Positions 1 to 37,493 of a stretch of 64,000 nucleotides of DNA are shown piece by piece. Every line of letters begins with the position of its first letter. Positions within the stretch are counted from its first letter, which is position 1. Under the pieces are notes generated by a model. That model saw only the letters and a program-made list of their open reading frames with translations. It was not told the origin of the DNA and searched no databases. This DNA comes from an uncultured Bacteroidales bacterium. Its GTDB lineage: Bacteria; Bacteroidota; Bacteroidia; Bacteroidales; GCA-2711565. Where the stretch lies: the NCBI GenBank assembly GCA_942491855.1, contig CALOCL010000003.1, positions 39,497 to 103,496 of the forward strand. Reading direction: 5' to 3'. A program made the position numbers and the translations under genes.

Positions 1-647
1 AAGAATCGGATAATTATCAGGTAACTAAAAACGTAATAAATGAAATTGTAAGGTTAAATGCTGAAACTAAGATTTCTGATGAGTTACTGCAAATTTTGCT
101 GAAAGATGAGATTTATAAGTTAAATGTAAATGATGAAATCATGTTTGATTTCCAAACTTTATGCAAAAACAATACATATATATCTAACCTTAATGATTCA
201 TACCAAACATACAAAAAAATTCTGCCTGGTATGCCTGTTTCAGATTTTAGATTTATTGACCAAATGGGGAAAGTTTATACCTTATCAGATTTCAAAGGAA
301 GCTACCTATATATTGATGTGTGGGGTCTTTACTGTTCTCCATGCTTAAAAGCGATGCCTAAGTTCAATGAAATAAAAAACTTTTTTAAAGGGAAAAAGAT
401 AAACTTTATTGGGGTTTGTAGAGAATTACCTAAAAATAAAGATAGATGGATTAAGAGAATGAGAGAATACAATGTAATGGGTCTTCAATTTTTACCCGAG
501 AATGAAAAACAATTTTTAAAAGATTATCTAATCGGAGAAATTCCACGCTATATACTCATCGATAAAGAAGGGCGTTTTATGAATGCTAATGCTACTAAGC
601 CTTCAGATGAGTTATTAAATGAATTATTAAAAATTAAGGATTTATAA
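1..647 (+). CDS. TlpA/ResA-like thiol-disulfide oxidoreductase (thioredoxin fold), 5' end outside window
   Basis: The frame of ORF 96..647 stays open back to base 3, so the gene is cut by the window edge. CxxC motif in WGLYCSPC preceded by DFKGSYLYIDVW, a typical redoxin layout. Confidence 0.8.
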   Translation, partial: ESDNYQVTKNVINEIVRLNAETKISDELLQILLKDEIYKLNVNDEIMFDFQTLCKNNTYISNLNDSYQTYKKILPGMPVSDFRFIDQMGKVYTLSDFKGSYLYIDVWGLYCSPCLKAMPKFNEIKNFFKGKKINFIGVCRELPKNKDRWIKRMREYNVMGLQFLPENEKQFLKDYLIGEIPRYILIDKEGRFMNANATKPSDELLNELLKIKDL

Positions 648-721
648 TAAGTGATATCGAGAATGCCGGAACTATCAATTTACTGCAAGTAGAAATAAAT
701 GTTAATTGGTCAAGGAACATT

Positions 722-2941: not shown

Positions 2942-3080
2942 AAAATAATTTTTATGAAAACATATTGCTTTTTACTCTTGTATTATTTTTTTGTTTTTCA
3001 GGATTTAAAGACACTTCGGGCGAGAAATAGCAGTATATTATGAAATTTTATATTAAAAAATGAAAGGTGGTAAATATGTA
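2714..3080 (+). repeat. Direct repeat copy 1 (last 75 codons of the S15 gene, spacer, first codons of a small ORF); partner at 11887..12265
   Basis: Manual alignment: about 20 substitutions in 228 coding nt. Spacer blocks TTTTCAGGATTTAAAG and GAAATAGCAG are shared, as is GGTAAATATGT at the small-ORF start. Confidence 0.85.
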
Positions 3081-3219
3081 ATAACAAAAAAAATCTAATT
3101 TTATTGAATGTTACTATTCTGCGTTGTTAAATCTCCATAAAACACATAGTGCTGGTTTTTATACGATTAAAGACATGAAATCAGCAAGTGGCTTTAGTAA
3201 TGTATGTTATGATGAATGA
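3060..3219 (+). pseudogene. Frameshifted paralogue of small ORF 12244..12534
   Basis: ATG 3060 gives MKGGKYVITKKI* with the stop right after an A8 run (3086-3093). Removing one A gives MKGGKYVITKKSNFIECYYSALLNLHKTHSAGFYTIKDMKSASGFSNVCYDE*, which parallels KGKYVITKHSPILF...STGFFHL...FRVVCH of the 12244 ORF. Confidence 0.55.
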
Positions 3220-3357
3220 GAAAATTTATATATTAAAAGCAACCCAGAGTGTAATTCGAACATTATTGAAAATTTTTAGTTAGACAGGATACAATAGGAC
3301 TGCTTATTAAGCGACATTACATCTAAAATTATAATCATTAAAAGAGATGAACATAAG

Positions 3358-4833
3358 ATGAAAATTCTAGGTAAAAGTACTATTATTATAATCACTTGTC
3401 TATTATTCACATTATTAACTGGATGCCTTCTAAATGAGAATAAGTCAAAAGACAAAAAGATTAAAGACTTAATGGATCAATACCACGATCTAGGTCAGTT
3501 TAACGGTTCTGTTCTGGTTTCGAAAGGTGATAATATTATTTATAAGAGTGGGTATGGGCTAGCAAATAGAGAATGGAATACTTATAATGATCCTGAAACA
3601 AAGTATAGACTGGGCTCCATTACTAAACAATTTACGGCTGCCATTATTCTAAAATTGGTGGAAGATGGCAAACTAAGCTTAGATCAGAAGATTATTGAAA
3701 TCCTTCCAAATTTTAATCAAGAAAGCGGTTTAAAGGTAAGCATACATCATTTACTAACCCACACATCAGGGATTCCCATGCCTCAATTATCTCGTGAAGA
3801 ATATGATGACATTTTTCAAAATAAACAAAGTACCGAACAACTTATAAAAAAATTATGCAATGAAGACTTAGCATTTAATCCAGGCTCAGAATTCAGATAT
3901 AGTAGTGCAGGTTACATAATCTTAGGTGCCATCATTGAACGAATAACAGCAAAAACTTGGGAAGAAAGCATCAAGGAATATATTCTTGACCCTTTAGAGA
4001 TGAACGATACAGGTGTTGATGATTACGAAAAAATTATTCCTAAAAGAGCTTCCGGATACCAAACCAATTATGGAAATGGTAACGCTCACTTTAAGTATAT
4101 GCCAAGTTCCTTTTCATCGGGTGCATTATATTCTACGGTTGAAGATATGCATAAGTGGTTTGTGGGATTGTGCAACAATAAAGTAATTTCCTCAAATCTG
4201 AAAGATTTAATGTTTTCAAAACATATTGGAAAACACCCTAGATATTTTGGATACGGGTGTTTTGTGGATGAGGTTGAGGTTAATGATTCAATAGTCAAAA
4301 TGATTTCTCATGCTGGAGATGTACATGGTTTCAGTGCCATCATTCTAGGAAACCCTCAAAATCAGGAGGCGGTTGTTCTTCTTTCTAATCAAGAAGGTAC
4401 TCACTATTACGAAATCGCTAATAATCTATTCAATATTCTAAATGACCTTGATGTTGATACACCAAAAAAATATGTTGCGGATGTATTAAGAGAAACCATT
4501 TATGCATCTGGAATTGAAATGGCCAAAAATAAATATTATGAAATGACAGAACTAGGATTTGAAAATTTCAATACTGACATTAGTGAATTGATTGAATTAG
4601 CCCAAGATTTGCAATATACCGGTAAGATTAAGGAGTCAATTGAAGTATTGAATATTACCTCCAGCTTACATCCTGATTCATATTATGTATTCGAATGCCT
4701 TGGTGAAGCTCTCTTTATTGAGAAAAACTTCAAATTAGCAATTCAGAATTTTAAGAAATCTTATACATTAAACCCTGAGAATATAAACGCTTTACATAAG
4801 ATTAATGAAATTGAAAAGATGATTGAAAAATAA
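3358..4833 (+). CDS. Beta-lactamase-fold serine hydrolase (S12-like) with C-terminal TPR-like tail, lipoprotein
   Basis: 491-aa ORF with lipoprotein-type signal (LLTGC). SxxK motif in LGSITKQFTA, YSSAGY (YxN-like) motif, TPR-like helical repeats at aa ~400-491. Confidence 0.85.
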   Translation: MKILGKSTIIIITCLLFTLLTGCLLNENKSKDKKIKDLMDQYHDLGQFNGSVLVSKGDNIIYKSGYGLANREWNTYNDPETKYRLGSITKQFTAAIILKLVEDGKLSLDQKIIEILPNFNQESGLKVSIHHLLTHTSGIPMPQLSREEYDDIFQNKQSTEQLIKKLCNEDLAFNPGSEFRYSSAGYIILGAIIERITAKTWEESIKEYILDPLEMNDTGVDDYEKIIPKRASGYQTNYGNGNAHFKYMPSSFSSGALYSTVEDMHKWFVGLCNNKVISSNLKDLMFSKHIGKHPRYFGYGCFVDEVEVNDSIVKMISHAGDVHGFSAIILGNPQNQEAVVLLSNQEGTHYYEIANNLFNILNDLDVDTPKKYVADVLRETIYASGIEMAKNKYYEMTELGFENFNTDISELIELAQDLQYTGKIKESIEVLNITSSLHPDSYYVFECLGEALFIEKNFKLAIQNFKKSYTLNPENINALHKINEIEKMIEK

Positions 4834-4851
4834 TAATTAAAAAACAGAAAA

Positions 4852-6075
4852 ATGAAAACTTTTTTTATACCAATGTTTATCTTGTTTTCTGGATTTAGTT
4901 TGATCGCTCAAATTCCGAATGACCCATTTTTTAAATACCAAATTACAATGAATGGGTTTCAAGATGATACAATCTCTATTCCACTTTATAATAATCGCAA
5001 GAAAAACAAAGATTTAAGAGTAAATCCTGAATTTCTATTGAATTTTACTAAAGTCTGGGAAATAACAACAGGAAGTAAGAAAGTTATTGTTGCGCTTTTA
5101 GAAGATGGTTTTTTTTATGAACATGAGGATATAATTGATAATATTTGGGAAAATCCTGGAGAGATTGGATTAGATAAAAATGGGCTTTCTAAGGATGCTA
5201 ACGGAATTGATGATGACCAAAATGGTTATGTGGATGATGTCATGGGTTATGATTTCATTTTTAATGATCCTGATCCAGACCCTTATATTTATGATGGAAT
5301 GGATAGAAATTCAATCCAACCAGCGTGGCATAGCATAGGTATTATGGGTATTATTGGGGCAAAAGGCAATAATCGAATTGGAATAGCAGGAATAAATTGG
5401 GATGTTTCTATGATGCTATTAAAAATTGGTGCACAGGGATTAAGAATGAATGAACTCGATCCCTTAAAACCAGAAAGAATTGCTAAAGCAATAAAATATG
5501 CAGTTGATAATGGAGCAAGAATTATTAATTGGTCAGGATTTATAAATCACAAAGATTCTACATCAATAAGTAAAATATCAGAGGCTATAAGATATGCTGA
5601 AGATAATGGAGTCCTACTTGTAACTTCTGCTGGGAATTATTACAAAAACATTGACAAACTAGAGAATTTTATAGTTCCAACTGGTTTAAAATTTTCTAAT
5701 ATAATTAGAGTAGGGGAAATTGATTTTGATGGTACTATTACTAAGCGAGTAACTATGCGTGGAGATACCTTAGGATCATCCTATGGTAAAAATTCTGTAG
5801 AAGTAGCTGCAATTGCAAAACATTTTACTACAAATCTGTATAATAATATTAGTACTTATAGAATAGTACCGGGAGGAACATCTAATTCAGCACCAGTTGT
5901 TACAGGCATAGCTGCTCTTATGCTATCAGTAAATCCTTCCTTAACTCCCCAAGAAATTAGAAAAATAATTATTAATACAGCTAAACCTGTTGTTGAACTA
6001 GATGAATATTTTATTTCTGGAGGAATTGTAAACCCCTTGAAAGCTGTGTTAGAGGCGATAGAATCAAAAAGATAA
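4852..6075 (+). CDS. S8 family (subtilisin-like) serine peptidase, exported
   Basis: 407-aa ORF with signal peptide. Triad contexts VALLEDG (Asp), WHSIGIMGIIGA (His) and GGTSNSAPVVTG (Ser). Confidence 0.8.
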   Translation: MKTFFIPMFILFSGFSLIAQIPNDPFFKYQITMNGFQDDTISIPLYNNRKKNKDLRVNPEFLLNFTKVWEITTGSKKVIVALLEDGFFYEHEDIIDNIWENPGEIGLDKNGLSKDANGIDDDQNGYVDDVMGYDFIFNDPDPDPYIYDGMDRNSIQPAWHSIGIMGIIGAKGNNRIGIAGINWDVSMMLLKIGAQGLRMNELDPLKPERIAKAIKYAVDNGARIINWSGFINHKDSTSISKISEAIRYAEDNGVLLVTSAGNYYKNIDKLENFIVPTGLKFSNIIRVGEIDFDGTITKRVTMRGDTLGSSYGKNSVEVAAIAKHFTTNLYNNISTYRIVPGGTSNSAPVVTGIAALMLSVNPSLTPQEIRKIIINTAKPVVELDEYFISGGIVNPLKAVLEAIESKR

Positions 6076-6119
6076 TTACAATATCGCATAATTTATCAAG
6101 TTTAAATCTAATAATTATT

Positions 6120-8048
6120 ATGAAAAGCTATAAAAATATCATTAAAAGATTAGGTTTGTTTTTTTTCTTTTTAATAGTCCTATTAATTCTTTTTCCCATA
6201 GTAATATCTGTTTTTAAGCTAACTCCTGATTATACTAAAAAATATACTATAGCTGGCTTTCCTATTAACACAATTAAATATATACAATTGGACAAGGAAA
6301 CAAATATTTGGATTAGTGTATGGTTGCCAGAAAATTTAAGTGCTAATAAAAAAATTTCAACACTAATTGAAACAAGTAGGTATGCTGAACATTTTGAAAT
6401 GGGATGGTTTTATAAAAGCTTGCAAGTTTTATCATTAGAGGATGATAACAGTTTCAAATCTGCTAAACCCAAGTTAGATAATGGATATGCTTACGTGTGG
6501 ATTCAATCTCCCGGATCATGCCAATCAAGTGGAGCTCGAAATATTGAATATCCCCCAAATGAAATTGATGCAATAAATACTGTAATTGAATGGATAATTA
6601 AGCAACCATGGTCAAATCAGAAGGTAGGAGCAATAGGTGGATCCTATTCTGGAACAACAGCAGAAATGAGTTGTGCTACAATGCATCCTGCACTTAAGGT
6701 CGTAGTATCTAAAGCACCTGATTTTGATCCTTATCAGGTAAATGCGCAACCAGGTGGATTGATGTCAGAAACATTTATAAAGACCTGGGCCAATATGATA
6801 TATAAAATGGATCAAAATGATGTTGTTGGAGTTGTAGAAGCGATTAATGGTGAAATGTCATTTATAGAAAAGATTATTCTTAAATCTCAGGTAAAAAAGT
6901 TAAAAGAACCTAACGAAGAGGATATTGATATTTATAACTTAGCTATAGAAAATCATAAAAATAATATTAAACCTGAAGAGCTTATTAAACTAATTGAATT
7001 TAAAGACCTTAGTGATACAAGGAGATCTAATCTTTCAATTGGTGATATTGCATTATATAACTACAAGGATAAAATTGAAGAAGCACAGGTGAACACATAT
7101 ACTTTAGTTGGATGGATGGATGCTGCTGTTGCCGAAGGAGCTTTACAAAAATATTTAACAATAAATTCTCCACAAGTTCTTACAATTTACCCAACAGGTC
7201 ATGTTTTAAGTAAATTGTCTGATCCATATGATACCTTGAAAACATTTAGTAAAAATGAAAAGGAAACCTTTGAAAATAATTATTGGAGTTATCTTGATAA
7301 GAATTTAAATTCTTGTTGTGAGAAAGAAGGAAGGAAAATTCGGTATTTCACATATGGAATTAATAAATGGCAAGAAACAACTGTATGGCCACCCAAAGGG
7401 GCTGAATATAAAAGATGGTACTTTAACGAAAATAATTCTTTAAAAACATCCAATCCATTAGTAAACAATGGCCTTGATAAATATATAGTTGATTTTACTG
7501 CAACTACAGGATCTAAAAATAGATGGATATCACAAATGGGGAAACATGTTATTTATAATGATAGAACAAATGAAGATACGAAGTTATTAACTTATACAAC
7601 TGATCCTTTAATTGAAGATATAGAAATAACAGGAAGTCCTACTGTAACATTATTTGTCTCCTCAACACACAAAGATGGGTCTTATCATATTTATCTTGAA
7701 GATATTACTCCGAATGGAGAAGCAATTTATTTAACAGAAGGTCTTTTAAGAGCGATTCATCGAAAGGAGTACCCCATCGAAGATGCACCTTATGTTCCGC
7801 TGGGAGTTTATCATTCATATTCTCAGTTAGATACAACATCCTTAGTTCCTGGGGAAGTTACCAAAATCAAAATATCATTATATCCGATTTCAACGGTATT
7901 TAAAAAAGGACATTCAATAAGGGTTTCAATTGCAGGCTATGATGCTTCAATGCAAAGCAAATATCCACAAGAGGGAACTCCAGTATTAAATGTTGAACGC
8001 AATTTGTTTTATAAATCAAATATTGAGATGCCAGTGATAAAAAGATAA
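6120..8048 (+). CDS. CocE/NonD family hydrolase (S15-like), membrane-anchored, highly diverged from 722..2941
   Basis: 642-aa ORF with N-terminal TM anchor (LGLFFFFLIVLLILFPIVISVF) and nucleophile elbow GAIGGSYSG. Size and C-terminal domain pattern match S15 hydrolases. Confidence 0.75.
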   Translation: MKSYKNIIKRLGLFFFFLIVLLILFPIVISVFKLTPDYTKKYTIAGFPINTIKYIQLDKETNIWISVWLPENLSANKKISTLIETSRYAEHFEMGWFYKSLQVLSLEDDNSFKSAKPKLDNGYAYVWIQSPGSCQSSGARNIEYPPNEIDAINTVIEWIIKQPWSNQKVGAIGGSYSGTTAEMSCATMHPALKVVVSKAPDFDPYQVNAQPGGLMSETFIKTWANMIYKMDQNDVVGVVEAINGEMSFIEKIILKSQVKKLKEPNEEDIDIYNLAIENHKNNIKPEELIKLIEFKDLSDTRRSNLSIGDIALYNYKDKIEEAQVNTYTLVGWMDAAVAEGALQKYLTINSPQVLTIYPTGHVLSKLSDPYDTLKTFSKNEKETFENNYWSYLDKNLNSCCEKEGRKIRYFTYGINKWQETTVWPPKGAEYKRWYFNENNSLKTSNPLVNNGLDKYIVDFTATTGSKNRWISQMGKHVIYNDRTNEDTKLLTYTTDPLIEDIEITGSPTVTLFVSSTHKDGSYHIYLEDITPNGEAIYLTEGLLRAIHRKEYPIEDAPYVPLGVYHSYSQLDTTSLVPGEVTKIKISLYPISTVFKKGHSIRVSIAGYDASMQSKYPQEGTPVLNVERNLFYKSNIEMPVIKR

Positions 8049-8057
8049 ACTAAAAAA

Positions 8058-8226
8058 ATGAGATATATTATGGAAGAGCAGAAAGCAAGTTGAATAAGCG
8101 AAAAAACACCAAGAATGAAACTTTAATTGCAAGAAAAAAACAATATCAAAGAAATCAATTAACTTAGAATTAATACTCTCTTAGATTTTAACTGCTAAAA
8201 AGTTTAAATTTCGCTGGTGACGTACA
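8058..8226 (+). mobile_element. Relic of an IS3-family element: last ~35 codons of orfB plus right inverted repeat
   Basis: Translation 8060-8164 EIYYGRAESKLNKRKNTKNETLIARKKQYQRNQLT* parallels DVYYGRGEQILNERKKLKNQAFIYRRNEYKKF of the intact orfB (10559..11560). The downstream AATACTCTCTTAG and terminal GACGTACA (ends 8226) match the intact IRR at 11567-11615. Confidence 0.8.
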
Positions 8227-8379
8227 TCACTACAAATATGGATTTTCAATCTGCAATCTATTGCCTAGCTTGCAATTGATTTTTCAGCTAGATAAATACT
8301 GTAACAAGAGCGTTTTAAGCTCGTTTATATTATTAGTATTTAAAAAGAATTTTTGATTTTAAATTTTAACACCTTAATA

Positions 8380-9726
8380 ATGATGATTAGAAGAACTATA
8401 ATTACGATAATCCTTTTCACTTTTGGATTATCCAACCTTGTCTTTTCCCAAAACCCAACTATAAATAATGTGGTATTTTCGAGGAGTGAATTAATTGAAG
8501 ATCTAAATATGCTGCGAGACACCCTGAAAGTTCATCCCAAATTGTATGAGTTTACCAATAAATATGAGTTTGATAAAATCTATCAAAGCATCAAAAATCA
8601 GCTCAAAGATGGGATGACTGCCGACGATTTTTTAAAAATCGCCTATCCATTGGTTGAACGAATTGGATGTGGACATTCGTCACTTTTCCCACCAATGAGT
8701 TATATTGCTAATCCTGAAGGAAAGACGATCCCTTTAGATATAAAAATTGATCAGGATGATATTTATATACTTTCAACATTTCCTGAAGGACTAATTCCAA
8801 GCGGGAGTAAATTACTTGCTATAAATAATAGGTCTTCAAAGGAAATTATTGCAAAACTTATGGATTATGTTTCGGTGGATGGCCTAAACAATCTTTCGGC
8901 CAAAAAATTCGGAGCTGAAAAAATGTTTGGAATGATATATCCCAAGTTTTTTACTCCTACCAACAACTATAAAATTCATTATCAGCTACCTTTCTGCGAA
9001 ACAACAGAAGAAATCATTTTAGAATCCTATAGCATTAAAGAAATCTGGATGCCTAAAATGAGTATTAAGAATCCATTCAGCTATAAATATCGAGAAGACC
9101 TAAATGCACTTATCCTTACTATAAAATCTTTCTATTTTAATGGAAATAACGACGAATTTTATACCTTTTTAGAAGAAGCTTTTGCAAAAGCTAAAAATGA
9201 AAAGATTGAGAATATTATTTTAGATTTACGAGGCAATGGTGGAGGCGATCCCTTGGCTGCAGGGCGTTTATTCTCCTACCTCATCCCAAAACCCCTAAAA
9301 TATTTTTCTGATGTTTTCTCTGATAAATATGCAAAGCTTGCCACGTCGATAAAACTTGCTGCGAATCACTTTGATGGTGAACTTTATACCTTAATTGACG
9401 GAGGAGGGTTTTCGACAACAGGTCATTTCGTATCCTTACTTAAATATCTTCAGATTGGAAAAATTATCGGTTCGGAACTAGGATCTACCTTTACTTGTAA
9501 CGATAATTGTATTTATGTAACTTTAAAAAACACTGGATATTTGGCAAAAATTGCACGATCAACTTTTTCAACCGCCGTTGAAGGAATGAGAGCAGATCAG
9601 GGGGTACTTCCCGACGTTCATGTTGCATTCTCTATCAAAGACTATGTCGATGGTGTTGATTCAGAAATAGAAACAATTAAAAAAATGATCATTAAACGAA
9701 AACAGACTAGATTAAAATCTAATTAA
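8380..9726 (+). CDS. S41 family peptidase, exported
   Basis: ORF 8353..9726, with the likely ATG at 8380 (MMIRRTIITIILF signal). S41 signature ILDLRGNGGGD and downstream GGGFSTTGH. Confidence 0.8.
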   Translation: MMIRRTIITIILFTFGLSNLVFSQNPTINNVVFSRSELIEDLNMLRDTLKVHPKLYEFTNKYEFDKIYQSIKNQLKDGMTADDFLKIAYPLVERIGCGHSSLFPPMSYIANPEGKTIPLDIKIDQDDIYILSTFPEGLIPSGSKLLAINNRSSKEIIAKLMDYVSVDGLNNLSAKKFGAEKMFGMIYPKFFTPTNNYKIHYQLPFCETTEEIILESYSIKEIWMPKMSIKNPFSYKYREDLNALILTIKSFYFNGNNDEFYTFLEEAFAKAKNEKIENIILDLRGNGGGDPLAAGRLFSYLIPKPLKYFSDVFSDKYAKLATSIKLAANHFDGELYTLIDGGGFSTTGHFVSLLKYLQIGKIIGSELGSTFTCNDNCIYVTLKNTGYLAKIARSTFSTAVEGMRADQGVLPDVHVAFSIKDYVDGVDSEIETIKKMIIKRKQTRLKSN

Positions 9727-10184
9727 ATTAAATAGATACAGTGAAAAAATCAGAATTCGTATCTGATAAAAAAGAAAGATGAATATTCGAGGATTATATT
9801 TAATGTTAATACTGGTTTTTTCTAGTATTCAATAACATAATAATTAACCGGTTTTTAATTAATGTGACAGAACCATAAAAAGAGGTAATATGAAAATTAA
9901 ATATTTAAATAAGTTATTCTATTCACATAGAAGCATCAGACTTATATGGGCTATTTTAGCTGTGATGATATTGATATTTGCCGGAGAGTTAATATTCGTT
10001 GATTCGTTTGTCAAGTTATTACCAAAGTTAGGATTATCATAAGTTACAGGTGTTATTGCTAATAATTGGTCAGAATCTTTAGGGGAGTCGTTGAAAAGAA
10101 TCATATGTAAATCGTCAGCATAAAGTGGACTGATTTAGACAAAAACTAAGAGAGTGTTTTCCAAATCTTTAAATTTGATATGTT

Positions 10185-10538
10185 ATGAAAACACAGAAGA
10201 GACAAACTAGCGAGAATTACATCAAAGAGATTCGCAGAAAAACCAGAAGGATCTTTAGCTCTGAACAGAAACTTCAAATTGTTATGGAAGCATTAAGAGC
10301 AGAGACCTCTATTGCTGAATTATGCAGAAAGTATGCCATTAATGAATCCCAATTTTACAAGTGGAACAAAGAGTTTTTAGAAGCTGGCAAAAAACGATTG
10401 GCAGGAGATACGACAAGAGAAGCTACCAGCGATGAAGTATCGGAACTTAGAAAAGAAAACCAACGGTTAAAAGAACTGGTTGCTGATTTAGTACTTCGAT
10501 ACGATATTGTAAAAAAAAGCTTATCCATGCTGGATTAA
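10185..10538 (+). CDS. IS3-family transposase OrfA (HTH)
   Basis: 117 aa. HTH region SIAELCRKYAINESQFYKWNKEF followed by a leucine-zipper-like ELRKENQRLKELVADL. Confidence 0.9.
   Translation: MKTQKRQTSENYIKEIRRKTRRIFSSEQKLQIVMEALRAETSIAELCRKYAINESQFYKWNKEFLEAGKKRLAGDTTREATSDEVSELRKENQRLKELVADLVLRYDIVKKSLSMLD
10511..10518 (+). promoter_or_regulatory. Programmed -1 ribosomal frameshift site (A-AAA-AAA-A) joining OrfA to OrfB
   Basis: A8 run read as GTA AAA AAA AGC in the orfA frame. The -1 frame is open from here (KKKLIHAGLTVKFKKYM) into orfB. Confidence 0.75.
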
Positions 10539-10558
10539 CTGTAAAATTTAAAAAGTAT

Positions 10559-11560
10559 ATGCGTTTTACAGTATCAGAAAAACAAGAAATCATCCATATG
10601 GTGGTTCGCTCAGAGCTTGGGGTAAATAGAACACTCAAGCAGATTGGTATTAATAAAAGTACCTTCTACAATTGGTATCATGCTTATAGCCAATATGGAG
10701 TTGAAGGATTAATACCGAATAAAAGATGCTCCAATCGTCAATGGAACAGTATTCCTCAGGAACAAAGGAATCTCGTTGTTAGATTTGCATTGGATTACCC
10801 AGAGTTATCATCGAGAGAATTAGCCTACAAAATAACCGATGAACAACAAATATTTATCTCTGAATCGAGTGTTTATAGAATCTTAAAAGCACGAGGGTTA
10901 ATTACTGCTCCAGCTCATATTTTTCTTAGTGCAGCTGACGAGTTTACCACCAAGACAAGCTTTATTCATCAGATGTGGCAAACCGATTTTACCTACTTTA
11001 AAATCCTGGGTTGGGGCTGGTATTACCTGAGTACCATTTTAGACGATTACAGCAGATATATCGTACACTGGGAGCTTTGTTCTAATATGAAAGTTGAGGA
11101 TGTGAAAAGAACAATAGATAGAGCTATTGTAAAAGCTAAAATCATCAGCAAACAAAGGCCTCGGCTACTATCAGATAATGGTTCTTGTTACATCGCAGCA
11201 GAATTGAAATCGTATTTGAAGGATTATCATCAAATGGATCAGGTTCACGGAAAACCTAATCACCCACAAACACAGGGAAAAATCGAGCGCTATCATAGAA
11301 CGATGAAAAATGTGGTGAAACTTGATAATTACTATGCTCCTGAAGAACTGGAAAGAGCTTTGGAGAAGTTTGTTTATCGCTATAATAATGAGCAATATCA
11401 TGAATCAATAAACAACTTAACCCCAGCAGATGTATATTATGGGCGAGGTGAGCAAATTTTAAATGAACGTAAAAAACTAAAAAATCAAGCCTTTATATAC
11501 AGAAGAAATGAGTACAAAAAATTTAAAAAATTAACTAAACAAGTAAATTATTATCTTTGA
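10559..11560 (+). CDS. IS3-family transposase OrfB (DDE/rve integrase core)
   Basis: 333 aa. WQTDFTYF (first D), LLSDNGSCY (second D) and GKIERYHRTMK (E) form the DD(35)E pattern. Confidence 0.9.
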   Translation: MRFTVSEKQEIIHMVVRSELGVNRTLKQIGINKSTFYNWYHAYSQYGVEGLIPNKRCSNRQWNSIPQEQRNLVVRFALDYPELSSRELAYKITDEQQIFISESSVYRILKARGLITAPAHIFLSAADEFTTKTSFIHQMWQTDFTYFKILGWGWYYLSTILDDYSRYIVHWELCSNMKVEDVKRTIDRAIVKAKIISKQRPRLLSDNGSCYIAAELKSYLKDYHQMDQVHGKPNHPQTQGKIERYHRTMKNVVKLDNYYAPEELERALEKFVYRYNNEQYHESINNLTPADVYYGRGEQILNERKKLKNQAFIYRRNEYKKFKKLTKQVNYYL

Positions 11561-11771
11561 AATTAAAACCTAAATACTCTCTTAGGAAAAGTCCAAATTA
11601 GTTTGAAGACGTACAATATAATCAAAATTGAAATTGCTTACACTTAATGTGTCCGTAAATATTTTGTAACCTGCAGTTTGTGCATACATCCTATTAAACA
11701 TATTGGCCATAAACTAATACGAGTTTGATAAATTAAACTATTCACACTAACAACATTGAGTCTTATTGGTC

Positions 11772-11860
11772 TAGCTGAAGTTTGTTTCAGCTAAACCTGC
11801 CTGACGAAGGCTGTGGGCTGGTCTTAATTGCTTCGTGCTTCGCACCCCTGTAATTAAGAC
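11772..11860. other. Two adjacent stem-loops in an unassigned, locally GC-richer 270-bp segment (possible structured RNA or element relic)
   Basis: Hairpin 1: TAGCTGAA-gtttgt-TTCAGCTA (11772-11793). Hairpin 2: GTCTTAATT (11821-11829) pairs with AATTAAGAC (11852-11860) and encloses GTGC-ttc-GCAC (11835-11845). Confidence 0.3.
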
Positions 11861-11883
11861 TTATTTGATTCTATGAGGATCTA

Positions 11884-12114
11884 CACCAAATTACAAGTGT
11901 AAATTTCGAACTAAATGATGTTTGGCACACTTTTAAGAAAGGTCACAGAATTGTAATTTATGTTCAAAGCTCTATGTTCCCGGTAATCGATAGAAACCCA
12001 CAAGTATTTACAGATATATATTCTGCTAAACCGAATGATTGTAGGTCTGCTACTAATATACTATTTCATTCTAAAAAACATCCAACTAATATAACTTTTA
12101 AAGTTCTTAAGTAA
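11884..12114 (+). pseudogene. 5'-deleted fragment (last ~76 codons) of a paralogous CocE/NonD hydrolase gene
   Basis: Translation HQITSVNFELNDVWHTFKKGHRIVIYVQSSMFPVIDRNPQVFTDIYSAKPNDCRSATNILFHSKKHPTNITFKVLK* aligns with the C-terminus of the 722..2941 product. An upstream in-frame stop and loss of similarity occur before 11884. Confidence 0.85.
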
Positions 12115-12243
12115 AAAATAATTTTAATAATAACACTTTGTTTTTTCTTTTGTAATGCTGATTTTTTTTGATTTTCAGGATTTAAAGATGCCTTGAGTAA
12201 GAAATAGCAGTGTCCAATCAAATCTTTACTTAAAAAATGATTG

Positions 12244-12534
12244 ATGAAAAAAGGTAAATATGTGATCACAAAGCATTCTCCAATTTTATTTATTCAAGGA
12301 ATCAAGCATAGTGAAATAGATTCTAATGCATGTAGTACAGGATTTTTTCATCTAATCGAGGATCCAAAATCCGATGAAGAGTTTCGGGTTGTTTGCCATT
12401 CGATGTCTTCTGTTTTGGGTTCTGGATTCGATTTCTTAGTCTTTGTCTTTACTCCGACTCTTCTTCCCGTTGTTCGCTTCAATAAAGATGTACATTTATT
12501 GTGTAATAATTACCCGTTTCAAATTAAACAATAG
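12244..12534 (+). CDS. Hypothetical small protein (96 aa)
   Basis: ATG at 12244. The N-terminal ~55 aa have a decayed paralogue at 3060..3219, which argues this part is or was coding. No family recognised, and the C-terminal half is hydrophobic and low in complexity. Confidence 0.45.
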   Translation: MKKGKYVITKHSPILFIQGIKHSEIDSNACSTGFFHLIEDPKSDEEFRVVCHSMSSVLGSGFDFLVFVFTPTLLPVVRFNKDVHLLCNNYPFQIKQ

Positions 12535-12569
12535 TTTATAATAGGCTGTAATATAACAAGTTGAAAGTT

Positions 12570-12585
12570 TGGCATTAAGATTGAT
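12570..12585 (+). promoter_or_regulatory. Sigma-54-like -24/-12 element TGGCAT-N5-TTGAT upstream of the FtsX permease gene
   Basis: TGGCATTAAGATTGAT has GG-N10-GA spacing identical to the element at 35009-35024 and lies 34 nt upstream of ATG 12619. Confidence 0.4.
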
Positions 12586-12618
12586 TTACTGAGAAAGCAT
12601 CAATTAAAAATATACATA

Positions 12619-14952
12619 ATGTTTAGAAATTATTTGATAATTATCTTAAGGAATTTTAAACGAAACTTCACATTTTCCTTAATCAATATTTTAGGCCTTA
12701 CTATTGGTCTAATAGTAAGTGTTTTGATTCTATTATATGTTGTAAATGAATTAACATATGATTCCTATCACAAAGACGCGAATAGAGTATACAGAATAAC
12801 TACCAAGATGGATATTGCTCAAATGAATGCACAGATGCATGACAATAAAGCAGTAGCACCTTTAGGTCCATTCTTAGTAGCTGGGTATCCAAAAATAACA
12901 GAATATACTAGAATCTCAGAAAAAGAGAACATTCAATTCTTACATAATAACAATCTATATAAAGAAGAAATATTTTACGCTGATTCGAGTTTTTTTGAAA
13001 TATTTACCGTCAACTTTCTTTATGGAAATCCAAGGAGTGCTTTAGTTGAACCAAATTCAATAGTTATAACCAAAGCAATTGCAGATAAATTTTTTGGAGA
13101 ATCAAATCCTTTAGGGAATTTTATCATTACCGATAAGAAAGAGCAATACAAAGTGACAGGTGTTGTAGAGTCCATTCCCGAAAACTCTCATTTTAAATTT
13201 GATATTCTTACTTCATTTTCCAAATTAGGCAGAAAGGATTCTTGGAATAACATCAATGACAAATACTCGACATACATTAAAATAGCATCAGATTATACTC
13301 CTTCAGAAGTTGATGTGGCGCTTTTACAAATAATTAAAGATCATTTATCAAGCAATCCAATGTTTGAGATATCCCTTTCCTTAGAACCTTTACAAGAAAT
13401 ATATCTTTATTATGGAGGAGGTGGAAATCTATCTAGGATCTTGTTATTTTCTGCCATTGGAATTTTCGTCTTACTAATTGCAAGTATAAATTTCATGAAT
13501 CTAAGTACAGCCCAATCAGCTACCAGAATGAAAGAAGTTGGGGTGCGAAAAGTAATTGGAGCCTATCGCAAGCAATTAGTCATGCAGTTTCTAGCTGAAT
13601 CTATTGTTTTTTGTTTGCTTGCTCTATTCCTTGCTCTGACAATTGCTGAATTATTAATCCCATCTTTTAATGGGTTTTTGCAAAAAAACTTAAAGATTAA
13701 TTACATTACTCAGTGGCCTCTAACCCTGGGATTTATATTCTTGGCCCTTTTTGTTGGTTTCTCAGCTGGAAGTTATCCTGCATTCTTTTTATCCTCTTTT
13801 AAACCTATAACAGCACTCAAAGGAAAATTTGTTGTTGGTACAGGCCAAAGTATATTACGAAATATTCTAGTTACATTTCAGTTTACAGTTTCCATATTTC
13901 TAATCTGCAGTACAGGCATTATTTACATGCAACTTAATCATATCAATAATACAGATCTAGGGTTTAAAAAAGAAGGTATAATGGTAATTGATTTACATAC
14001 AGGAAATGTAAACCCCGATTATTTAAAAAACGAGTTACTAAAATTACCTGAAATAGAGCAATTAACACTTGCGTCTAATTTTCCCTTTTTTGGCTTGAAT
14101 ATTACAAGCTTTCAAACAGAAGAATCTGAACAAGAATTTCAAGGATCCTTCAGCAGTGTTGATTTTAATTTTATCGACCTACTAGGTCTCGAAATAATTA
14201 AGGGCAGGCAATTTCTGAAAGAAAATTCAACTGATGATAAAAGTATAATTATTAATGAAACATTAGCAAAAGAACAAAATTGGGAAAACCCAATTGGCAA
14301 AACAATAAAGTACAAGGATGAGGATTATCGCGTTATCGGTGTAGTTAAAGATTATCACTATTCTCCTTTACACAATCGAATAAAACCAATATTTCTAATA
14401 TTATCTGATTTCTATATTTCAGAGGTTGGCTTAAAAATAGCTACTGATAATATTCAAGAAACAATCAAAAAAATTGAATCTGTATATAAAGATGTTGATG
14501 ATTCCGGAGAATTCAATTTCAGTTTCATGGATGAAAAAATCAAGAAAATGTATTTAGAAGAAAATCGTACAGGTAAAACTTTTATACTATTTACAATATT
14601 GGCCATATTCATTGCATCCATGGGGTTATATGGTTTAGCATCATTTGTAGCTAAACAGAGGACCAAAGAAATTGGCATAAGGAAGGTTTTAGGCTCAACG
14701 ATTAACGAAATTGTGATTAACCTTTCAACAGATTTCCTAAAACTGATATTAATAGCTACAGTAATAGCGATTCCAACATCCTGGTATTTTACAGAAAACT
14801 GGCTTCATAATTTTGCATATCAAGTGGGAAATCGCTGGTGGATTTTCGTTCTCTCAACAGTAGTTGCAGTTTTTATTGCATTTATCACAATACTTCATCA
14901 ATCTCTTAAAGCAGCAAAAGCAAATCCTGTAGATACTATTCGACATGAATAA
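12619..14952 (+). CDS. FtsX/MacB-like ABC transporter permease (no adjacent ATPase)
   Basis: 777 aa. N-terminal TM, MacB-like periplasmic domain, and two FtsX 4-TM modules each preceded by a conserved loop (EVGVRKVIGAYRKQL and EIGIRKVLGSTINEI). Confidence 0.9.
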   Translation: MFRNYLIIILRNFKRNFTFSLINILGLTIGLIVSVLILLYVVNELTYDSYHKDANRVYRITTKMDIAQMNAQMHDNKAVAPLGPFLVAGYPKITEYTRISEKENIQFLHNNNLYKEEIFYADSSFFEIFTVNFLYGNPRSALVEPNSIVITKAIADKFFGESNPLGNFIITDKKEQYKVTGVVESIPENSHFKFDILTSFSKLGRKDSWNNINDKYSTYIKIASDYTPSEVDVALLQIIKDHLSSNPMFEISLSLEPLQEIYLYYGGGGNLSRILLFSAIGIFVLLIASINFMNLSTAQSATRMKEVGVRKVIGAYRKQLVMQFLAESIVFCLLALFLALTIAELLIPSFNGFLQKNLKINYITQWPLTLGFIFLALFVGFSAGSYPAFFLSSFKPITALKGKFVVGTGQSILRNILVTFQFTVSIFLICSTGIIYMQLNHINNTDLGFKKEGIMVIDLHTGNVNPDYLKNELLKLPEIEQLTLASNFPFFGLNITSFQTEESEQEFQGSFSSVDFNFIDLLGLEIIKGRQFLKENSTDDKSIIINETLAKEQNWENPIGKTIKYKDEDYRVIGVVKDYHYSPLHNRIKPIFLILSDFYISEVGLKIATDNIQETIKKIESVYKDVDDSGEFNFSFMDEKIKKMYLEENRTGKTFILFTILAIFIASMGLYGLASFVAKQRTKEIGIRKVLGSTINEIVINLSTDFLKLILIATVIAIPTSWYFTENWLHNFAYQVGNRWWIFVLSTVVAVFIAFITILHQSLKAAKANPVDTIRHE

Positions 14953-14999
14953 AAAATAATCAATTCAATTTAATCTTAACAAACTTTAATTTTAAAACA

Positions 15000-15716
15000 A
15001 TGAAAAAAAGTATTCTAATATCAATATGCATCTATTTTTTAACTAGCCAGATAAATCTTTACGCTCAAGATAATAGTTCTGGAATCATTACATATTTAAA
15101 AAATACAGATATGCATGCATCTACTAAAAATGAACAGGTTAAAGCAATGATACCCCAATTTAGTGAATGTCAAATAATACTAAGTTATATGGATCGCTTT
15201 GCTCGTACTGAAAAAGTAGAAGGTAACTCTGAAGGATTTAGAACTTTTTATTTCGGTCTTTCTGATAATTGTATTTATGATTATAAAGAAAATATTTATC
15301 ACAATTTTGTTTGGTTACCAACAGGTAATTTTCTTGTAACTGGTAAAATCAAGGAAAGCAGTGCTGAAATAAAAACTGAAATAAAAGAAATTTTAGGTTA
15401 TTCATGCCGCAAAGCAGTTATCAAAACAGAGGACAAGGATATTGAAATTTGGTTTACTGATCAGATACCTGTACAAGTTTCACCTATGGGAGATCTAGGT
15501 GTTTCAGGGGCAGTCCTTGAAATCAATTCAATTAGTAGTCATACAACCTATACAGCTGCTTCTATTGACTTTAAGCCTATTGAAAGTAGTTTATTTATAA
15601 TTTCCGATGATATTAATAAAAAATATAAAAGAATGAGTTTTGAAAAATTCGATGAGATGATTAAAAACTTGAAAAAAGCTAAAAAAGGAAAAAAAGCTTA
15701 CACAATATCAAATTAA
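15000..15716 (+). CDS. GLPGLI family protein
   Basis: 238 aa with signal peptide. C-terminal region ILGYSCRKAVIK...EIWFTDQIPVQVSPMGDLGVSGAVLEI matches the W-T-x-x-IP / GP-x-GLPGLI-type pattern of this Bacteroidota family. Confidence 0.65.
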   Translation: MKKSILISICIYFLTSQINLYAQDNSSGIITYLKNTDMHASTKNEQVKAMIPQFSECQIILSYMDRFARTEKVEGNSEGFRTFYFGLSDNCIYDYKENIYHNFVWLPTGNFLVTGKIKESSAEIKTEIKEILGYSCRKAVIKTEDKDIEIWFTDQIPVQVSPMGDLGVSGAVLEINSISSHTTYTAASIDFKPIESSLFIISDDINKKYKRMSFEKFDEMIKNLKKAKKGKKAYTISN

Positions 15717-15801
15717 CATTTATCTTGTGCAAATAGCGGTCATAATTCTCATAAATTAGCTATTCTAATAAGGAGATAGTAATAGATTTTAAGAAATAAG
15801 T

Positions 15802-16163
15802 ATTCTTCTTCCATAAGATAATGCATCACTCATAAAATCAACAGACCATGTTTGATTGAGTGTAGTAGGTACAATTAGTGGTTCTTTTACTCTTGAAGGC
15901 AAGCGCCTTTTTCGTTTTCTACGGATATTTAACCCCATACTTCTATAAACCCTTAAGACACGCTTCCTGTTCCATTTTAAGCCTTCATTGCGTATGCGGT
16001 TGTAGTACTCATCAAAACCTCGTGTGGGGTGTTTCTCTGCCAGCTCATTAAGCCTGTCAATGACCGCTGTGTCATCCCGTTTGTTTTGATAGTACCACAT
16101 GGAGCGATGTAAATCAACCACCAAGCACGCCCTGTTTACACTTATTTGATATTCTTCTTGCAA
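15802..16163 (-). pseudogene. 3'-truncated IS3-family transposase OrfB
   Basis: ORF 15789..16163 matches the first 121 aa of the 277-aa OrfB at 27764..28597, then runs into unrelated flank. Confidence 0.9.
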
Positions 16164-16195
16164 ATAGCTTACCCGCTCTTTCTTTTCACAGGGCT

Positions 16196-16462
16196 TTAGA
16201 ACTTTTTTCCAAGTACGTCTTTTAACATCTCGTGGTCAAGACTAAGATCTGCATACATCCGTTTTAAACGCCTGTTCTCTTCTTCCAGTTCCTTGAGCTT
16301 TTTTAATTGATGGCTATCCATCCCGGAATACTTTTTCTTCCAATTATAGAATGTAGCTCTTGATATGCCATAGTCACGGCACAGATCTTTTACTTCTCTG
16401 CCAGCTTCATACTCCTTCAGTATCTTGATAATCTGGCTTTCACTAAATTTAATTCTTTTCAT
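16196..16462 (-). CDS. IS3-family transposase OrfA (copy in truncated element)
   Basis: 88 aa, identical to the product of 28630..28896. HTH region VKDLCRDYGISRATFYNWKKKY. Confidence 0.85.
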   Translation of the reverse strand: MKRIKFSESQIIKILKEYEAGREVKDLCRDYGISRATFYNWKKKYSGMDSHQLKKLKELEEENRRLKRMYADLSLDHEMLKDVLGKKF

Positions 16463-16527
16463 AATGACAATTTAAAGTTAAACATTTTGTCTAATTTTAA
16501 ACTGTCCGATTTTTAGGGAAGGCTACA

Positions 16528-17072
16528 TGGATACTTACAAAACCAAGTATCCCTTCAATATTTTAGAAGATAAACGTCAAAATGAACTCAATGATTTTCT
16601 GGATAAAATTGCAAAATACCAGGCAACGAAAATTTTAGTTTAATGGAACAGAATAAAATCAGAAAGTATTACAAACGTCAGGTATCAAGCCTTTTTGGGC
16701 GGTAATTTTGATTTGAGTAAAAAAACGAATGAAGTGTATCTGTAGCCTTCCCTAAAAATGTAGCCTTCCCTAAAAACCGTTCAAACCCTATGTGAGTAAC
16801 TGTTCATGCTTAACAGAAACGAAAACCGATTAAAAAATCATCAAGCCTATTTAACAAACATACTGGAAGGAGCCGGGGATAATTATCTGGGATCAGATGC
16901 CACCGCTAATTGGTATCGCAGAAACCTGAGAATTTTCGCTGACGCCTATGATTTAACCAATTTCGATCAACAAGAACGACTCTTGTTGATTTATGAATCG
17001 GGGTATGTATGGAAACTTCGGCAATTATTCACCGATTCGCCCGACTACGATTATGTGGAGGTAAATATTTAA
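16528..17072 (+). pseudogene. Disrupted hypothetical gene (resembles DUF5694-type Bacteroidota proteins)
   Basis: The fragment DTYKTKYPFNILEDKRQNELNDFLDKIAKYQATKILV-stop(TAA 16641-16643)-WNRIKSESITNVRYQAFLGGNFDLSKKTNEVY abuts IS ends on both sides. The C-terminal part (16806..17072, ...WYRRNLRIFADAY...LLLIYESGYVWKL) resumes after the solo IS-end doublet. Family assignment is from memory only. Confidence 0.6.
16741..16776 (+). repeat. Solo doublet of the 18-bp IS terminus TGTAGCCTTCCCTAAAAA, inverted relative to the truncated IS copy
   Basis: Two perfect tandem units (16741-16758, 16759-16776). They are followed by CCGTTCAAACCC instead of the IS interior sequence TCGGACAG. Confidence 0.9.
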
Positions 17073-27763: not shown

Positions 27764-28597
27764 CTAATATAGACATTTCTCGGTTATTTTATTGTTTTTT
27801 CTCAGGAAGTTAACTTCCTGAGAAAAAGTTTCTGCATACTTTTTCGGACTCATCTTATTAAGCGAACTATGTGGATGATAGTTGTTATAGTCCTCCATCC
27901 ATTGTTCAATAAGTATTTTAAGTTGGCTAATGTTATCAAAAAGATAGGCATCTAGTATATCTTCCCTAAACAGTCTGTTGAATCGTTCAATGTAAGCATT
28001 TTGAACTGGTTTTCCCGGTTGGATATACTTAATCTCGATTCCCTGGAACTCGCACCAGTTAGTAAATACCCTGGATATAAATTCAGGACCATTATCAACA
28101 CGGATACTTTTAGGCTTCCCTCTGAAAAATATTACTTCTTTCATGACACGGATCAGTTGTTCTGCTGGGAATGAAAAGCCTGGTTCTACGGCAAGGGCTT
28201 CCCGGTTATAATCATCAATAATATTCAAAATACGGATTCTTCTTCCATAAGATAATGCATCACTCATAAAATCAACAGACCATGTTTGATTGAGTGTAGT
28301 AGGTACAATTAGTGGTTCTTTTACTCTTGAAGGCAAGCGCCTTTTTCGTTTTCTACGGATATTTAACCCCATACTTCTATAAACCCTTAAGACACGCTTC
28401 CTGTTCCATTTTAAGCCTTCATTGCGTATGCGGTTGTAGTACTCATCAAAACCTCGTGTGGGGTGTTTCTCTGCCAGCTCATTAAGCCTGTCAATGACCG
28501 CTGTGTCATCCCGTTTGTTTTGATAGTACCACATGGAGCGATGTAAATCAACCACCAAGCACGCCCTGTTTACACTTATTTGATATTCTTCTTGCAA
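27764..28597 (-). CDS. IS3-family transposase OrfB (DDE/rve)
   Basis: 277 aa with WSVDFMSD (D), RVDNGPEF (D) and NAYIERFNRLFRED (E). The annotated start is TTG, so expression as an OrfAB fusion is expected. Confidence 0.9.
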   Translation of the reverse strand: MQEEYQISVNRACLVVDLHRSMWYYQNKRDDTAVIDRLNELAEKHPTRGFDEYYNRIRNEGLKWNRKRVLRVYRSMGLNIRRKRKRRLPSRVKEPLIVPTTLNQTWSVDFMSDALSYGRRIRILNIIDDYNREALAVEPGFSFPAEQLIRVMKEVIFFRGKPKSIRVDNGPEFISRVFTNWCEFQGIEIKYIQPGKPVQNAYIERFNRLFREDILDAYLFDNISQLKILIEQWMEDYNNYHPHSSLNKMSPKKYAETFSQEVNFLRKNNKITEKCLY

Positions 28598-28629
28598 ATA
28601 GCTTACCCGCTCTTTCTTTTCACAGGGCT

Positions 28630-28896: not shown

Positions 28897-28943
28897 AATG
28901 ACAATTTAAAGTTAAACATTTTGTCTAATTTTAAACTGTCCGA

Positions 28944-35024: not shown

Positions 35025-35055
35025 TATGGTTTAGTTCATTATTAAACCAAAAGTG

Positions 35056-37479: not shown

Positions 37480-37493
37480 TTAAATCTCCAGTA

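Follow-up and report, generated by a model that had tools for sequence, protein, structure and literature searches.

An orphan 3' end of a CocE/NonD hydrolase gene

Near one end of the 64-kb stretch of Bacteroidales DNA analyzed here (the window), an intact peptidase S15 gene is followed, 9.2 kb farther on, by what looks like the tail of a second one. How did an orphan 3' end come to lie so close to a complete copy, and does it do anything there? The first-pass annotation, made from the sequence letters, had read the fragment as a 5'-deleted relic of a paralogous hydrolase followed by its downstream small open reading frame (ORF). It had offered two histories: partial deletion of a tandem hydrolase-plus-small-ORF module next to an insertion sequence (IS), or duplication or insertion of the 9-kb interval between the repeats.

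The intact gene (positions 722 to 2941, plus strand) encodes a 739-amino-acid (aa) TPR plus CocE/NonD (peptidase S15) protein. Pfam searches identified Peptidase_S15 (PF02129; 1e-53, 183 bits) and PepX_C (PF08530; 4e-31, 109 bits), and the NCBIfam model TIGR00976 (CocE_NonD) scored 269 bits against a cutoff of 66. With a full-length catalytic domain, a PepX_C domain and scores above the curated cutoffs, this protein belongs to the CocE/NonD family.

The fragment (11887 to 12114, plus strand) comprises 75 codons and a stop codon, about the last tenth of the gene. It encodes positions 151 to 216 of the 217-position profile of PepX_C, the noncatalytic C-terminal domain, and nothing else of that family (30.7 bits), has neither a start codon nor a catalytic domain, and its reading frame is closed by a stop codon 8 codons upstream of 11887, where similarity to the intact gene also ends. 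Judged by its sequence, it is a relic of a CocE/NonD member and not a functional member itself. When the full S15 protein was used as a tblastn query against the window, only residues 664 to 739 were found, at 11884 to 12111; no other piece of a second S15 gene was detected in the window. Since any remnant as young as this tail would be obvious and none was found, the 5' part of the second hydrolase gene appears to have been deleted rather than merely to have decayed. The closest relative of the fragment is the intact copy (87% aa identity), ahead of all other homologs, and the two have derived residues in common that set them apart from the homologs P0003, P0004 and P0005.

The fragment is part of a two-copy direct repeat

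A single blastn alignment pairs positions 2714 to 3105 (copy 1) with 11887 to 12290 (copy 2), both on the plus strand, at 82.7% identity over 405 columns with 4 gap openings (E ~1e-116). In copy 1, this high-similarity tract runs from the last 75 S15 codons through the spacer to codon 15 of a small gene, here small gene 1. The two modules lie in the same orientation, 9.2 kb apart, and are the only such pair; neither a self-comparison of the region against the whole 64-kb window nor a MAFFT view revealed a third copy of the repeat.

Divergence is distributed unevenly along the tract. The coding part (2714 to 2941 versus 11887 to 12114) contains 20 substitutions in 228 nucleotides (nt) (91.2% identity) and no indels, so that the frame stays open; 10 of these substitutions are synonymous and 10 nonsynonymous. 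The longest exact blocks between the copies (36, 33 and 32 nt) lie within these 228 nt. The remaining, noncoding part has 41 mismatches in 164 ungapped columns, which corresponds to 75% identity, or 69.9% when gap columns are counted, and within it TTTTCAGGATTTAAAGA and AGAAATAGCAGT recur as exact blocks in both copies. Also inside the tract lie the small ORF's first 15 codons, which begin MKGGKYVITK in one copy and MKKGKYVITK in the other.

These results uphold the first-pass reading of the fragment at each point. The estimate of about 20 substitutions in 228 nt, made by hand, proved exact, and the frame is indeed intact. Likewise, the closed frame and the end of similarity upstream, and the continued similarity through the spacer (including both quoted blocks) into the small ORF, all hold; the repeat limits, for which blastn had been proposed as a check, are those given above. 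The partial PepX_C match, the closed frame and the closeness to copy 1 together support a relic of a paralogous S15 hydrolase gene that lost its 5' part, accompanied by its small ORF.

Each module has a spacer of about 120 nt between the hydrolase and the small gene. The module 2 spacer (12115 to 12243, plus strand) is about 70% identical to its counterpart at 2942 to 3059. We considered regulatory RNA, promoter and terminator roles for the spacer and rejected them, as folding was not significant (z-scores of -0.9 to +0.2), promoter and terminator signals showed no excess, and Rfam returned no match. Exact blocks of 17 and 12 nt in the spacer are unsurprising given 75% identity.

A very rare small-protein family is represented in both modules

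Small gene 2 (12244 to 12534, plus strand; 96 aa) initially resembled an orphan ORF, since a word-indexed search returned only itself. This interpretation was overturned by a full HMMER (phmmer) scan of 1.84 billion cluster representatives, which matched it to P0246 (77 aa; E 8e-11, 57% identity over residues 1 to 56) and P0247 (97 aa; E 1e-6). Three further HMMER matches are long repeat proteins and look spurious. From this alignment (A4) and tblastn, residues 1 to ~58 of small gene 2 belong to the family, and the last ~38, which are encoded by T-rich DNA, are unlike the family C terminus. The N-terminal ~55 residues of the family follow the pattern GKYxIT..PILF..I.HS...S.G.F.L..D....F.V.C, and both small genes proved homologous to it.

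Small gene 1 (3060 to 3279, plus strand) is full length but broken. Its lesions are an A8 run at 3086 to 3093 and an in-frame TGA at 3217 to 3219, ahead of a final TAG at 3277 to 3279; in the window assembly, the ORF appears to end after 12 codons. We compared this region with an independent short-contig assembly, the Logan assembly of run ERR9669565, in which contig L023 (equivalent to window positions 2875 to 6904) carries A7 at 3086 to 3093. This restores the frame, which then reads MKGGKYVITKKSNFIECYYSALLNLHKTHSAGFYTIKDMKSASGFSNVCYDE, a stop codon, ENLYIKSNPECNSNIIENF and a second stop codon. The TGA is thus present in both assemblies and the frameshift in the window assembly only. The A7/A8 difference separates two assemblies of near-identical strains and might reflect a phase-variable (contingency) locus, but the window and L023 differ by two further homopolymer indels, and it may be an error.

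The reconstructed 72-aa product of small gene 1 matches P0246 along its whole length by BLASTP (E 8e-15, 41% identity over 75 aa). Even the part beyond the nucleotide repeat matches the family profile A4 (hhalign, E 1.6e-8), and a tblastn search of the window with P0246 hit 3148 to 3282 (E 9e-9) as well as 12259 to 12417. Small gene 1 is therefore not cut at 3105: the A7 run in L023 and the homology to 3279 rule out a rearrangement breakpoint at 3105/3106. Because protein homology in copy 1 extends to 3279, we are dealing with two whole modules and not with a gene tail beside a chance ORF.

The family gave no match in Pfam, NCBIfam, PADLOC or PDB, and the AlphaFold prediction for the small protein (pLDDT 50) was unusable. 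On the strength of these alignments, it is a real but very rare family, represented by 3 to 4 members in the 1.84 billion cluster representatives. Besides this genome, only two contigs bear it, neither with an S15 gene adjoining, and none of the three closest S15 homologs (P0003, P0004 and P0005) is followed by a gene of this family. The S15-spacer-small gene pairing is thus peculiar to this genome, yet present in it twice, which suggests that it arose once and was duplicated as a unit.

Divergence between the modules is mosaic

The S15 fragment retains 87% protein identity to copy 1, while small proteins 1 and 2 are only 35% identical overall and 21% identical beyond codon 15, and neither resembles the other more than it does P0246 or P0247. 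Nucleotide similarity past 3105/12290 falls to noise (z = 1.7). Where both copies have codons for the same residue, 10 of 64 codon pairs differ in the S15 fragment, compared with 6 of 9 in the small gene past codon 15 (Fisher P = 0.003), a comparison of small numbers in which the alignment of the diverged part is uncertain. Synonymous divergence is therefore lower in the tract than in its homologous flank, the pattern by which gene conversion is recognized, at P = 0.003 and on the same small numbers. By this measure, the 392-bp tract evidently dates from much later than the remainder of the small genes, which are near saturation. The simplest reading of this mosaic is gene conversion or recombination between older paralogs, an explanation contained in neither of the two histories first put forward.

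We next asked how long the fragment has been dead. Compared with copy 1, it has a dS of 0.26, a dN of 0.058 and a dN/dS of 0.23 (NG86), with an excess of synonymous change (P = 0.003). Had it been dead ever since the copies were identical, at least 24 nonsynonymous differences would be expected at the neutral rate obtained by pooling synonymous sites and spacer (d = 0.29); 10 were observed (P <= 6e-4). This implies that the fragment has been dead for ~0 to 30% of the divergence. A weaker test, which conditions on the total of 20 substitutions, reaches no more than P = 0.05 to 0.10 against a history that was half neutral.

Polarizing the substitutions with P0004 and P0005 as outgroups assigned 2 synonymous and 3 nonsynonymous changes to the copy 1 branch and 3 and 6, respectively, to the copy 2 branch, with 6 ambiguous. 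The copy 2 counts are compatible with neutrality, and the rates of the two branches do not differ significantly (9 versus 5 polarized changes). Conserved positions changed radically on the copy 2 branch, among them one from Cys to Trp and one from Tyr to Cys. Taken together, these patterns fit a second hydrolase gene that stayed under selection while most of the divergence accumulated, truncation coming later.

The interval contains hydrolase genes, relics and an IS3 element

The interval between the modules (3280 to 11886) contains genes, relics, an IS3 element and 284 bp of other DNA. As first annotated, it holds four hydrolase genes, an IS relic and an intact-looking IS3 element. The hydrolase genes encode a beta-lactamase-family protein (3358 to 4833), an S8 subtilase (4852 to 6075), a distant S15 paralog with 24% identity (6120 to 8048) and an S41 peptidase (8353 to 9726), and an IS3-OrfB-like relic lies at 8060 to 8152. 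Downstream of these, tblastn revealed a relic of a membrane-protein gene (9890 to 10105, plus strand; 72 codons, with an in-frame TAA at codon 51). It corresponds to the first 72 residues of the gene directly 3' of P0003 in contig L027 (57% identity, E 5.6e-22); homology stops 23 bp before the IS3 element and does not resume past it. A minus-strand ORF of 105 codons that runs in frame across the IS3 element is an antisense shadow of this relic. So too is the "YADD" motif of an antisense frame, which with the upstream structure had suggested a retron; this reading was also rejected on size.

The IS3-family element (10129 to 11602, plus strand; ~1.47 kb) is delimited by 31-nt terminal inverted repeats with 74% complementarity (10129 to 10159 and 11572 to 11602). 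OrfA (10185 to 10538) and OrfB (10559 to 11560) are in a -1 relation, with an A-run slippery site at 10511 to 10518 in the frame overlap. The element matches HTH_Tnp_1 (9e-15) and rve (8e-21) in Pfam and scores 163.2 for NF033516 (IS3) against a cutoff of 160, compared with 191 against a cutoff of 224 for IS481. The two-frame transposase, the -1 slippery site and the score above the cutoff identify it as an IS3 member. No target-site duplication of 3 to 5 bp was evident when its flanks (...AGTGG and TTGAA...) were read by eye, a hint that one end was rearranged afterwards. Elsewhere, the window contains a second IS type in one complete and one truncated copy (15794 to 16528 versus 28228 to 28962, 99.7% identity).

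Between the IS3 element and the breakpoint lie 284 bp (11603 to 11886), not the 270 bp first reported, when the right end of the element is set by its inverted repeats at ~11602. The right-hand 130 nt of this DNA (11755 to 11890) are strongly structured (minimum free energy z-scores of -4.2 on the plus strand and -3.6 on the minus strand). Positions 11603 to 11886 showed no similarity to the rest of the window, to 27 fetched loci or to viral contigs, no family match, and no Rfam match at E <= 1. It is conceivable, though very improbable, that an undescribed mobile element or noncoding RNA ends in this structured stretch and lies behind the truncation. On the far side of module 2, outside the repeat, the next gene encodes a MacB/FtsX-type permease (12619 to 14952, plus strand; Pfam MacB_PCD and FtsX).

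The first 16 kb of the window, which include both modules, the interval, the FtsX gene and the gene after it, are AT-richer than the other 48 kb (GC3 of 0.18 to 0.28 versus 0.31 to 0.39). Several other gene relics occur in these 16 kb, which suggests that decay and rearrangement are common there. The interval has the same base composition as its flanks, the whole of the first 16 kb being uniform, so a compositionally foreign interval was rejected and composition provides no support for its separate arrival.

Relatives and a second assembly

To place the locus among its relatives, we examined the best other S15 proteins among 5.8 billion, which were P0003 (77% identity), P0004 (73%) and P0005 (64%), the last encoded beyond the window on the 162-kb contig that contains it. 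No S15 protein in this collection fell between 77% and 100% identity, so it records no allele with a full second copy. A scan of genome contigs for relatives with a full second S15 gene gave at most 47% identity to the S15 query. In metagenome scans, the conserved spacer motif had no match, and the FtsX protein reached at most 38% identity and revealed no syntenic relative. Exact-protein lookups matched only short contigs of the same strain. No relative turned up that has a second complete gene or that lacks the 9-kb interval, and the history proposed below therefore rests on one genome. DnaB, encoded at the other end of the window (62427 to 63959), assigns the window to Bacteroidota; it matched named Bacteroidales/Bacteroidetes metagenome-assembled genomes (MAGs) at 70 to 88% and other relatives at up to 96%. 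The 96% match is P0127, encoded on a 4.05-Mb contig, and P0129 to P0132 reach 91 to 92%.

In the Logan assembly, L023 reproduces the 3' part of copy 1 and its continuation, and contig L001, which starts at window position 12048, does the same for copy 2. Both contigs break within the 33-nt exact block common to the two copies. The junction at 11886/11887 is covered by the window assembly and lies outside the second one.

A proposed history of the locus

Our reading starts from the direct repeat, the truncation, the small-gene family and the mosaic divergence as observed. From these we infer that a full second gene once stood at this site, that a conversion event occurred and that events took place in the order given here. 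We consider it probable that the locus derives from two paralogous modules, of which module 2 had its hydrolase gene truncated after the tract had been homogenized by conversion or recombination.

In this model, a whole module, consisting of a CocE/NonD (S15) hydrolase gene, a ~120-nt spacer and a small gene, would have been duplicated long ago. While the second hydrolase gene was still full length and selected, conversion or recombination between the paralogs would have homogenized a stretch reaching at least from the 3' end of the hydrolase gene through the spacer to about codon 15 of the small gene. The homogenized tract (392 to 404 bp) would later have diverged to 83% identity. The first ~664 codons of the second hydrolase gene would then have been removed by deletion or rearrangement, leaving the junction at 11886/11887. 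Module 1 (722 to 3279) retains an intact hydrolase gene beside a broken small gene, and module 2 (11887 to ~12420) is a stump whose small gene keeps only the conserved N-terminal ~58 codons.

The two histories of the first-pass annotation fare differently against this evidence. The partial deletion of a tandem module stands as far as the truncated paralogous module is concerned; the part assigned to the IS gains no support, as the IS3 element ends 284 bp from the breakpoint. The alternative, that 392 bp were duplicated in place by a 9-kb insertion, is disfavored by the count of nonsynonymous differences. In its fuller form, this alternative has a single ancestral module split in place by an inserted ~8.8-kb hydrolase/IS block, with the 392 bp duplicated and no second full gene at any time. 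It accounts for the S15 gene running unbroken into copy 1 and copy 2 running unbroken into small gene 2, and it agrees with the shared base composition of the interval and both flanks. However, copy 1 has its own full-length small gene past the repeat, so there is no simple insertion footprint; the small genes approach saturation, against 83 to 91% identity in the tract; and the nonsynonymous differences are too few for a fragment that was neutral from the start. We therefore regard a split module as quite improbable, whether by way of a long target duplication or a replication-repair duplication.

The signature of purifying selection could also be explained without a second full gene ever having been present in this genome, if the stump was imported already truncated from a related donor by homology-assisted integration (Campbell-type or one-sided anchoring). 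The AT richness of the first 16 kb fits such an import, as do the frequent IS elements and relics and the lack of close homologs for the genes of these 16 kb in the searched collections, even though DnaB relatives reach 96%. Against it, several separate novel junctions would be required (~10105, 11886/11887 and ~12420), hallmarks of a donor or a mobile element, such as an integrase or att sites, do not adjoin the stump, and the derived residues common to the fragment and copy 1 suggest an origin within the lineage. We think that import is unlikely, and with it the corollary that the divergence of the copies is older than their co-residence.

A chimeric join in a metagenome-assembled contig is a different kind of concern, since the source looks like a draft or MAG contig and the critical junction falls outside the coverage of the second assembly. 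Yet the copies differ at 17% of positions, too many for a pile of reads that had been collapsed or duplicated; a false join would be expected inside a shared exact block and not at the edge of similarity; and independent contigs reproduce the copy-specific sequences and both downstream continuations. An artifact of this kind is extremely improbable.

Could the fragment instead be functional, as a silent donor cassette for recombinational variation of the hydrolase C terminus or the small gene, or as a short expressed peptide or RNA? Its intact 75-codon frame and dN/dS of 0.23, the A8 versus A7 difference in small gene 1 between near-identical strains, and the structured 130-nt element that abuts it might all be read in this way. 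But the fragment has no start codon and a frame closed upstream, the spacer lacks significant structure and any promoter or terminator excess, the copies are direct repeats and only two in number, no recombinase adjoins them except the IS3 transposase, the copy 2 branch has changed conserved residues (Cys to Trp and Tyr to Cys), and the two further homopolymer indels in the same contig pair fit assembly noise. We give this explanation almost no credence. Also very improbable, if marginally less so, is a maintained two-state arrangement, in which recombination in the tract excises and reinserts the 9.2-kb block and homopolymer slippage switches small gene 1. If it were true, excision would restore a single chimeric "S15 + small gene 2" module adjoining the FtsX permease gene, and the repeat would be a programmed switch for a secreted-hydrolase island rather than debris.

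Returning to the two-module history, the fragment at 11887 to 12114 likely has no function of its own, the only plausible activity for such a sequence being that of a homology patch. Exact blocks of 36, 33 and 32 nt are enough for rare RecA-type exchange, at a rate strongly reduced by divergence. Rare recombination between the copies could thus delete or duplicate the 9.2-kb hydrolase block; deletion by such an exchange is predicted to leave a single S15 gene, chimeric but intact, with small gene 2 downstream of it. The locus is an ordinary product of duplication, conversion and deletion, genome wear and not a new system.

Implications and comparison with known systems

The significance of this locus beyond annotation is small. 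The fragment should be annotated as a pseudogene remnant, 3060 to 3279 as a disrupted small gene and 9890 to 10105 as another relic. Beyond this, it illustrates cleanly, on a small scale, how paralogous modules can diverge as a mosaic, a young and apparently converted tract lying inside old sequence, and how an AT-rich accessory region of an undersampled Bacteroidota lineage decays piece by piece. A mildly useful by-product is the very rare small-protein family, here paired twice with a CocE/NonD hydrolase.

Each component of the locus resembles a known system in part. The transposable element has the OrfA/OrfB arrangement in -1 relation, A-run slippery site, 31-nt inverted repeats and ~1.47-kb length of the IS3 family; unlike family members in general, it has no evident 3- to 5-bp target duplication. 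Copy 1 matches both domains of the CocE/NonD hydrolases (TIGR00976) end to end, with the addition of an N-terminal TPR extension, whereas the fragment matches the last third of PepX_C and lacks the entire alpha/beta-hydrolase catalytic domain. As an orphan 3' end without start or catalytic domain, flanked by IS elements and other relics and most closely related to an intact paralog nearby, the fragment resembles the 5'-truncated paralog relics of IS-rich accessory regions. It differs from them in that no IS lies at its junction, from which the IS3 element is separated by 284 bp of partly structured DNA.

Gene conversion and concerted evolution between bacterial paralogs are a general phenomenon. 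In this single genome, one edge of the tract is visible (~3105/12290), the other having been lost with the deleted 5' part. As in gene conversion, low synonymous divergence is confined to a tract with a sharp boundary, and the modules that contain it are otherwise near saturation.

The first 16 kb of the window is probably an accessory island

GC3 ranges from 0.18 to 0.28 in the first ~16 kb (1-16000) versus 0.31 to 0.39 in 16000-64000, making the first part AT-richer. No close homologues of its genes were found in the searched collections, whereas relatives of DnaB reach up to 96%. This stretch probably represents an accessory island whose right edge lies near a truncated insertion sequence (IS) at 15794-16528. 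A second IS3-type element (HTH_21, rve, and rve_3) is present twice on the minus strand, once as this truncated IS and once at 28228-28962. The copies are in direct orientation and 99.7% identical across 735 bp, with the rve half missing from the copy at 15794. Short inverted matches of 36 to 39 nt are present at 16740-16779 and 28941-29016, and a perfect palindrome of 32 nt (27796-27827) lies within or beside the second copy. A 31-codon relic resembling the C terminus of the IS3 OrfB (8060-8152; 45% identity, E value of 2e-4) comes straight after the distant S15 hydrolase gene (6120-8048).

Comparison of the window with L023, a Logan contig of a near-identical strain, revealed 7 single nucleotide polymorphisms in 4 kb as well as differences in homopolymer length, which may represent phase variation or assembly error. 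In small gene 1, the run at 3086-3093 is A8 in the window and A7 in L023, and the A7 version restores the frame. For the S8 gene (C4 versus C3 in L023, at 5947) and the distant S15 gene (T8 versus T7, at 6159), it is the window version that keeps the long ORF.

A structured element and a rare gene family flank the hydrolase stump

Directly left of the breakpoint of the orphan S15 fragment (11886/11887) is a structured stretch of 130 nt (11755-11890) with a G+C content above that of the flanking DNA. It folds far better than shuffled sequences (z of -4.2 on the plus strand and -3.6 on the minus strand), and the predicted fold comprises two hairpins, one of 8 bp and one of 12 bp with a nested GUGC/GCAC stem; UUAUUUGAUU comes next. 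The element has no second copy within the window and no match in Rfam; possible identities include a terminator, a REP-like element, and the end of an RNA.

Downstream of the stump, small gene 2 (12244-12534) belongs to a family of ~77- to 97-aa proteins that includes L025 254-487 and L026 9257-9550 on two other contigs, the latter neighbored by NHL/PD40 propeller, beta-lactamase-family, and S41 genes. Among 1.84 billion representatives, the family counts only three to four members. They share the pattern GKYxIT..PILF..I.HS...S.G.F.L..D....F.V.CYGES...KSNP.KD.KIIKDF and have no match in Pfam, NCBIfam, PADLOC, or PDB. The FtsX-type permease that lies downstream of the stump (12619-14952) shares 36% protein identity with tandem MacB/FtsX paralogues at 35038-37482 and 37476-39896, which are 66% identical to each other in nucleotide sequence.

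Neighbors of the S15 homologues

Two S15 homologues are each followed by a His_kinase (PF06580) gene and a LytTR response regulator gene: the paralogue P0005 (in L019 5492-9622), located beyond the window on the same 162-kb contig, and P0004 (in L018 357-4415). This recurrent pairing of a hydrolase with a two-component system is absent from both hydrolase modules of the window. On L027, the closest S15 homologue is directly followed by a gene for a membrane protein, to which a plus-strand relic in the window corresponds (9890-10105; N-terminal 72 codons, with an in-frame TAA at codon 51). The homology ends 23 bp short of the IS3 element (10129-11602). The L027 protein ends in ...EEAFFRGF, which resembles motif 1 of CPBP/CAAX proteases.
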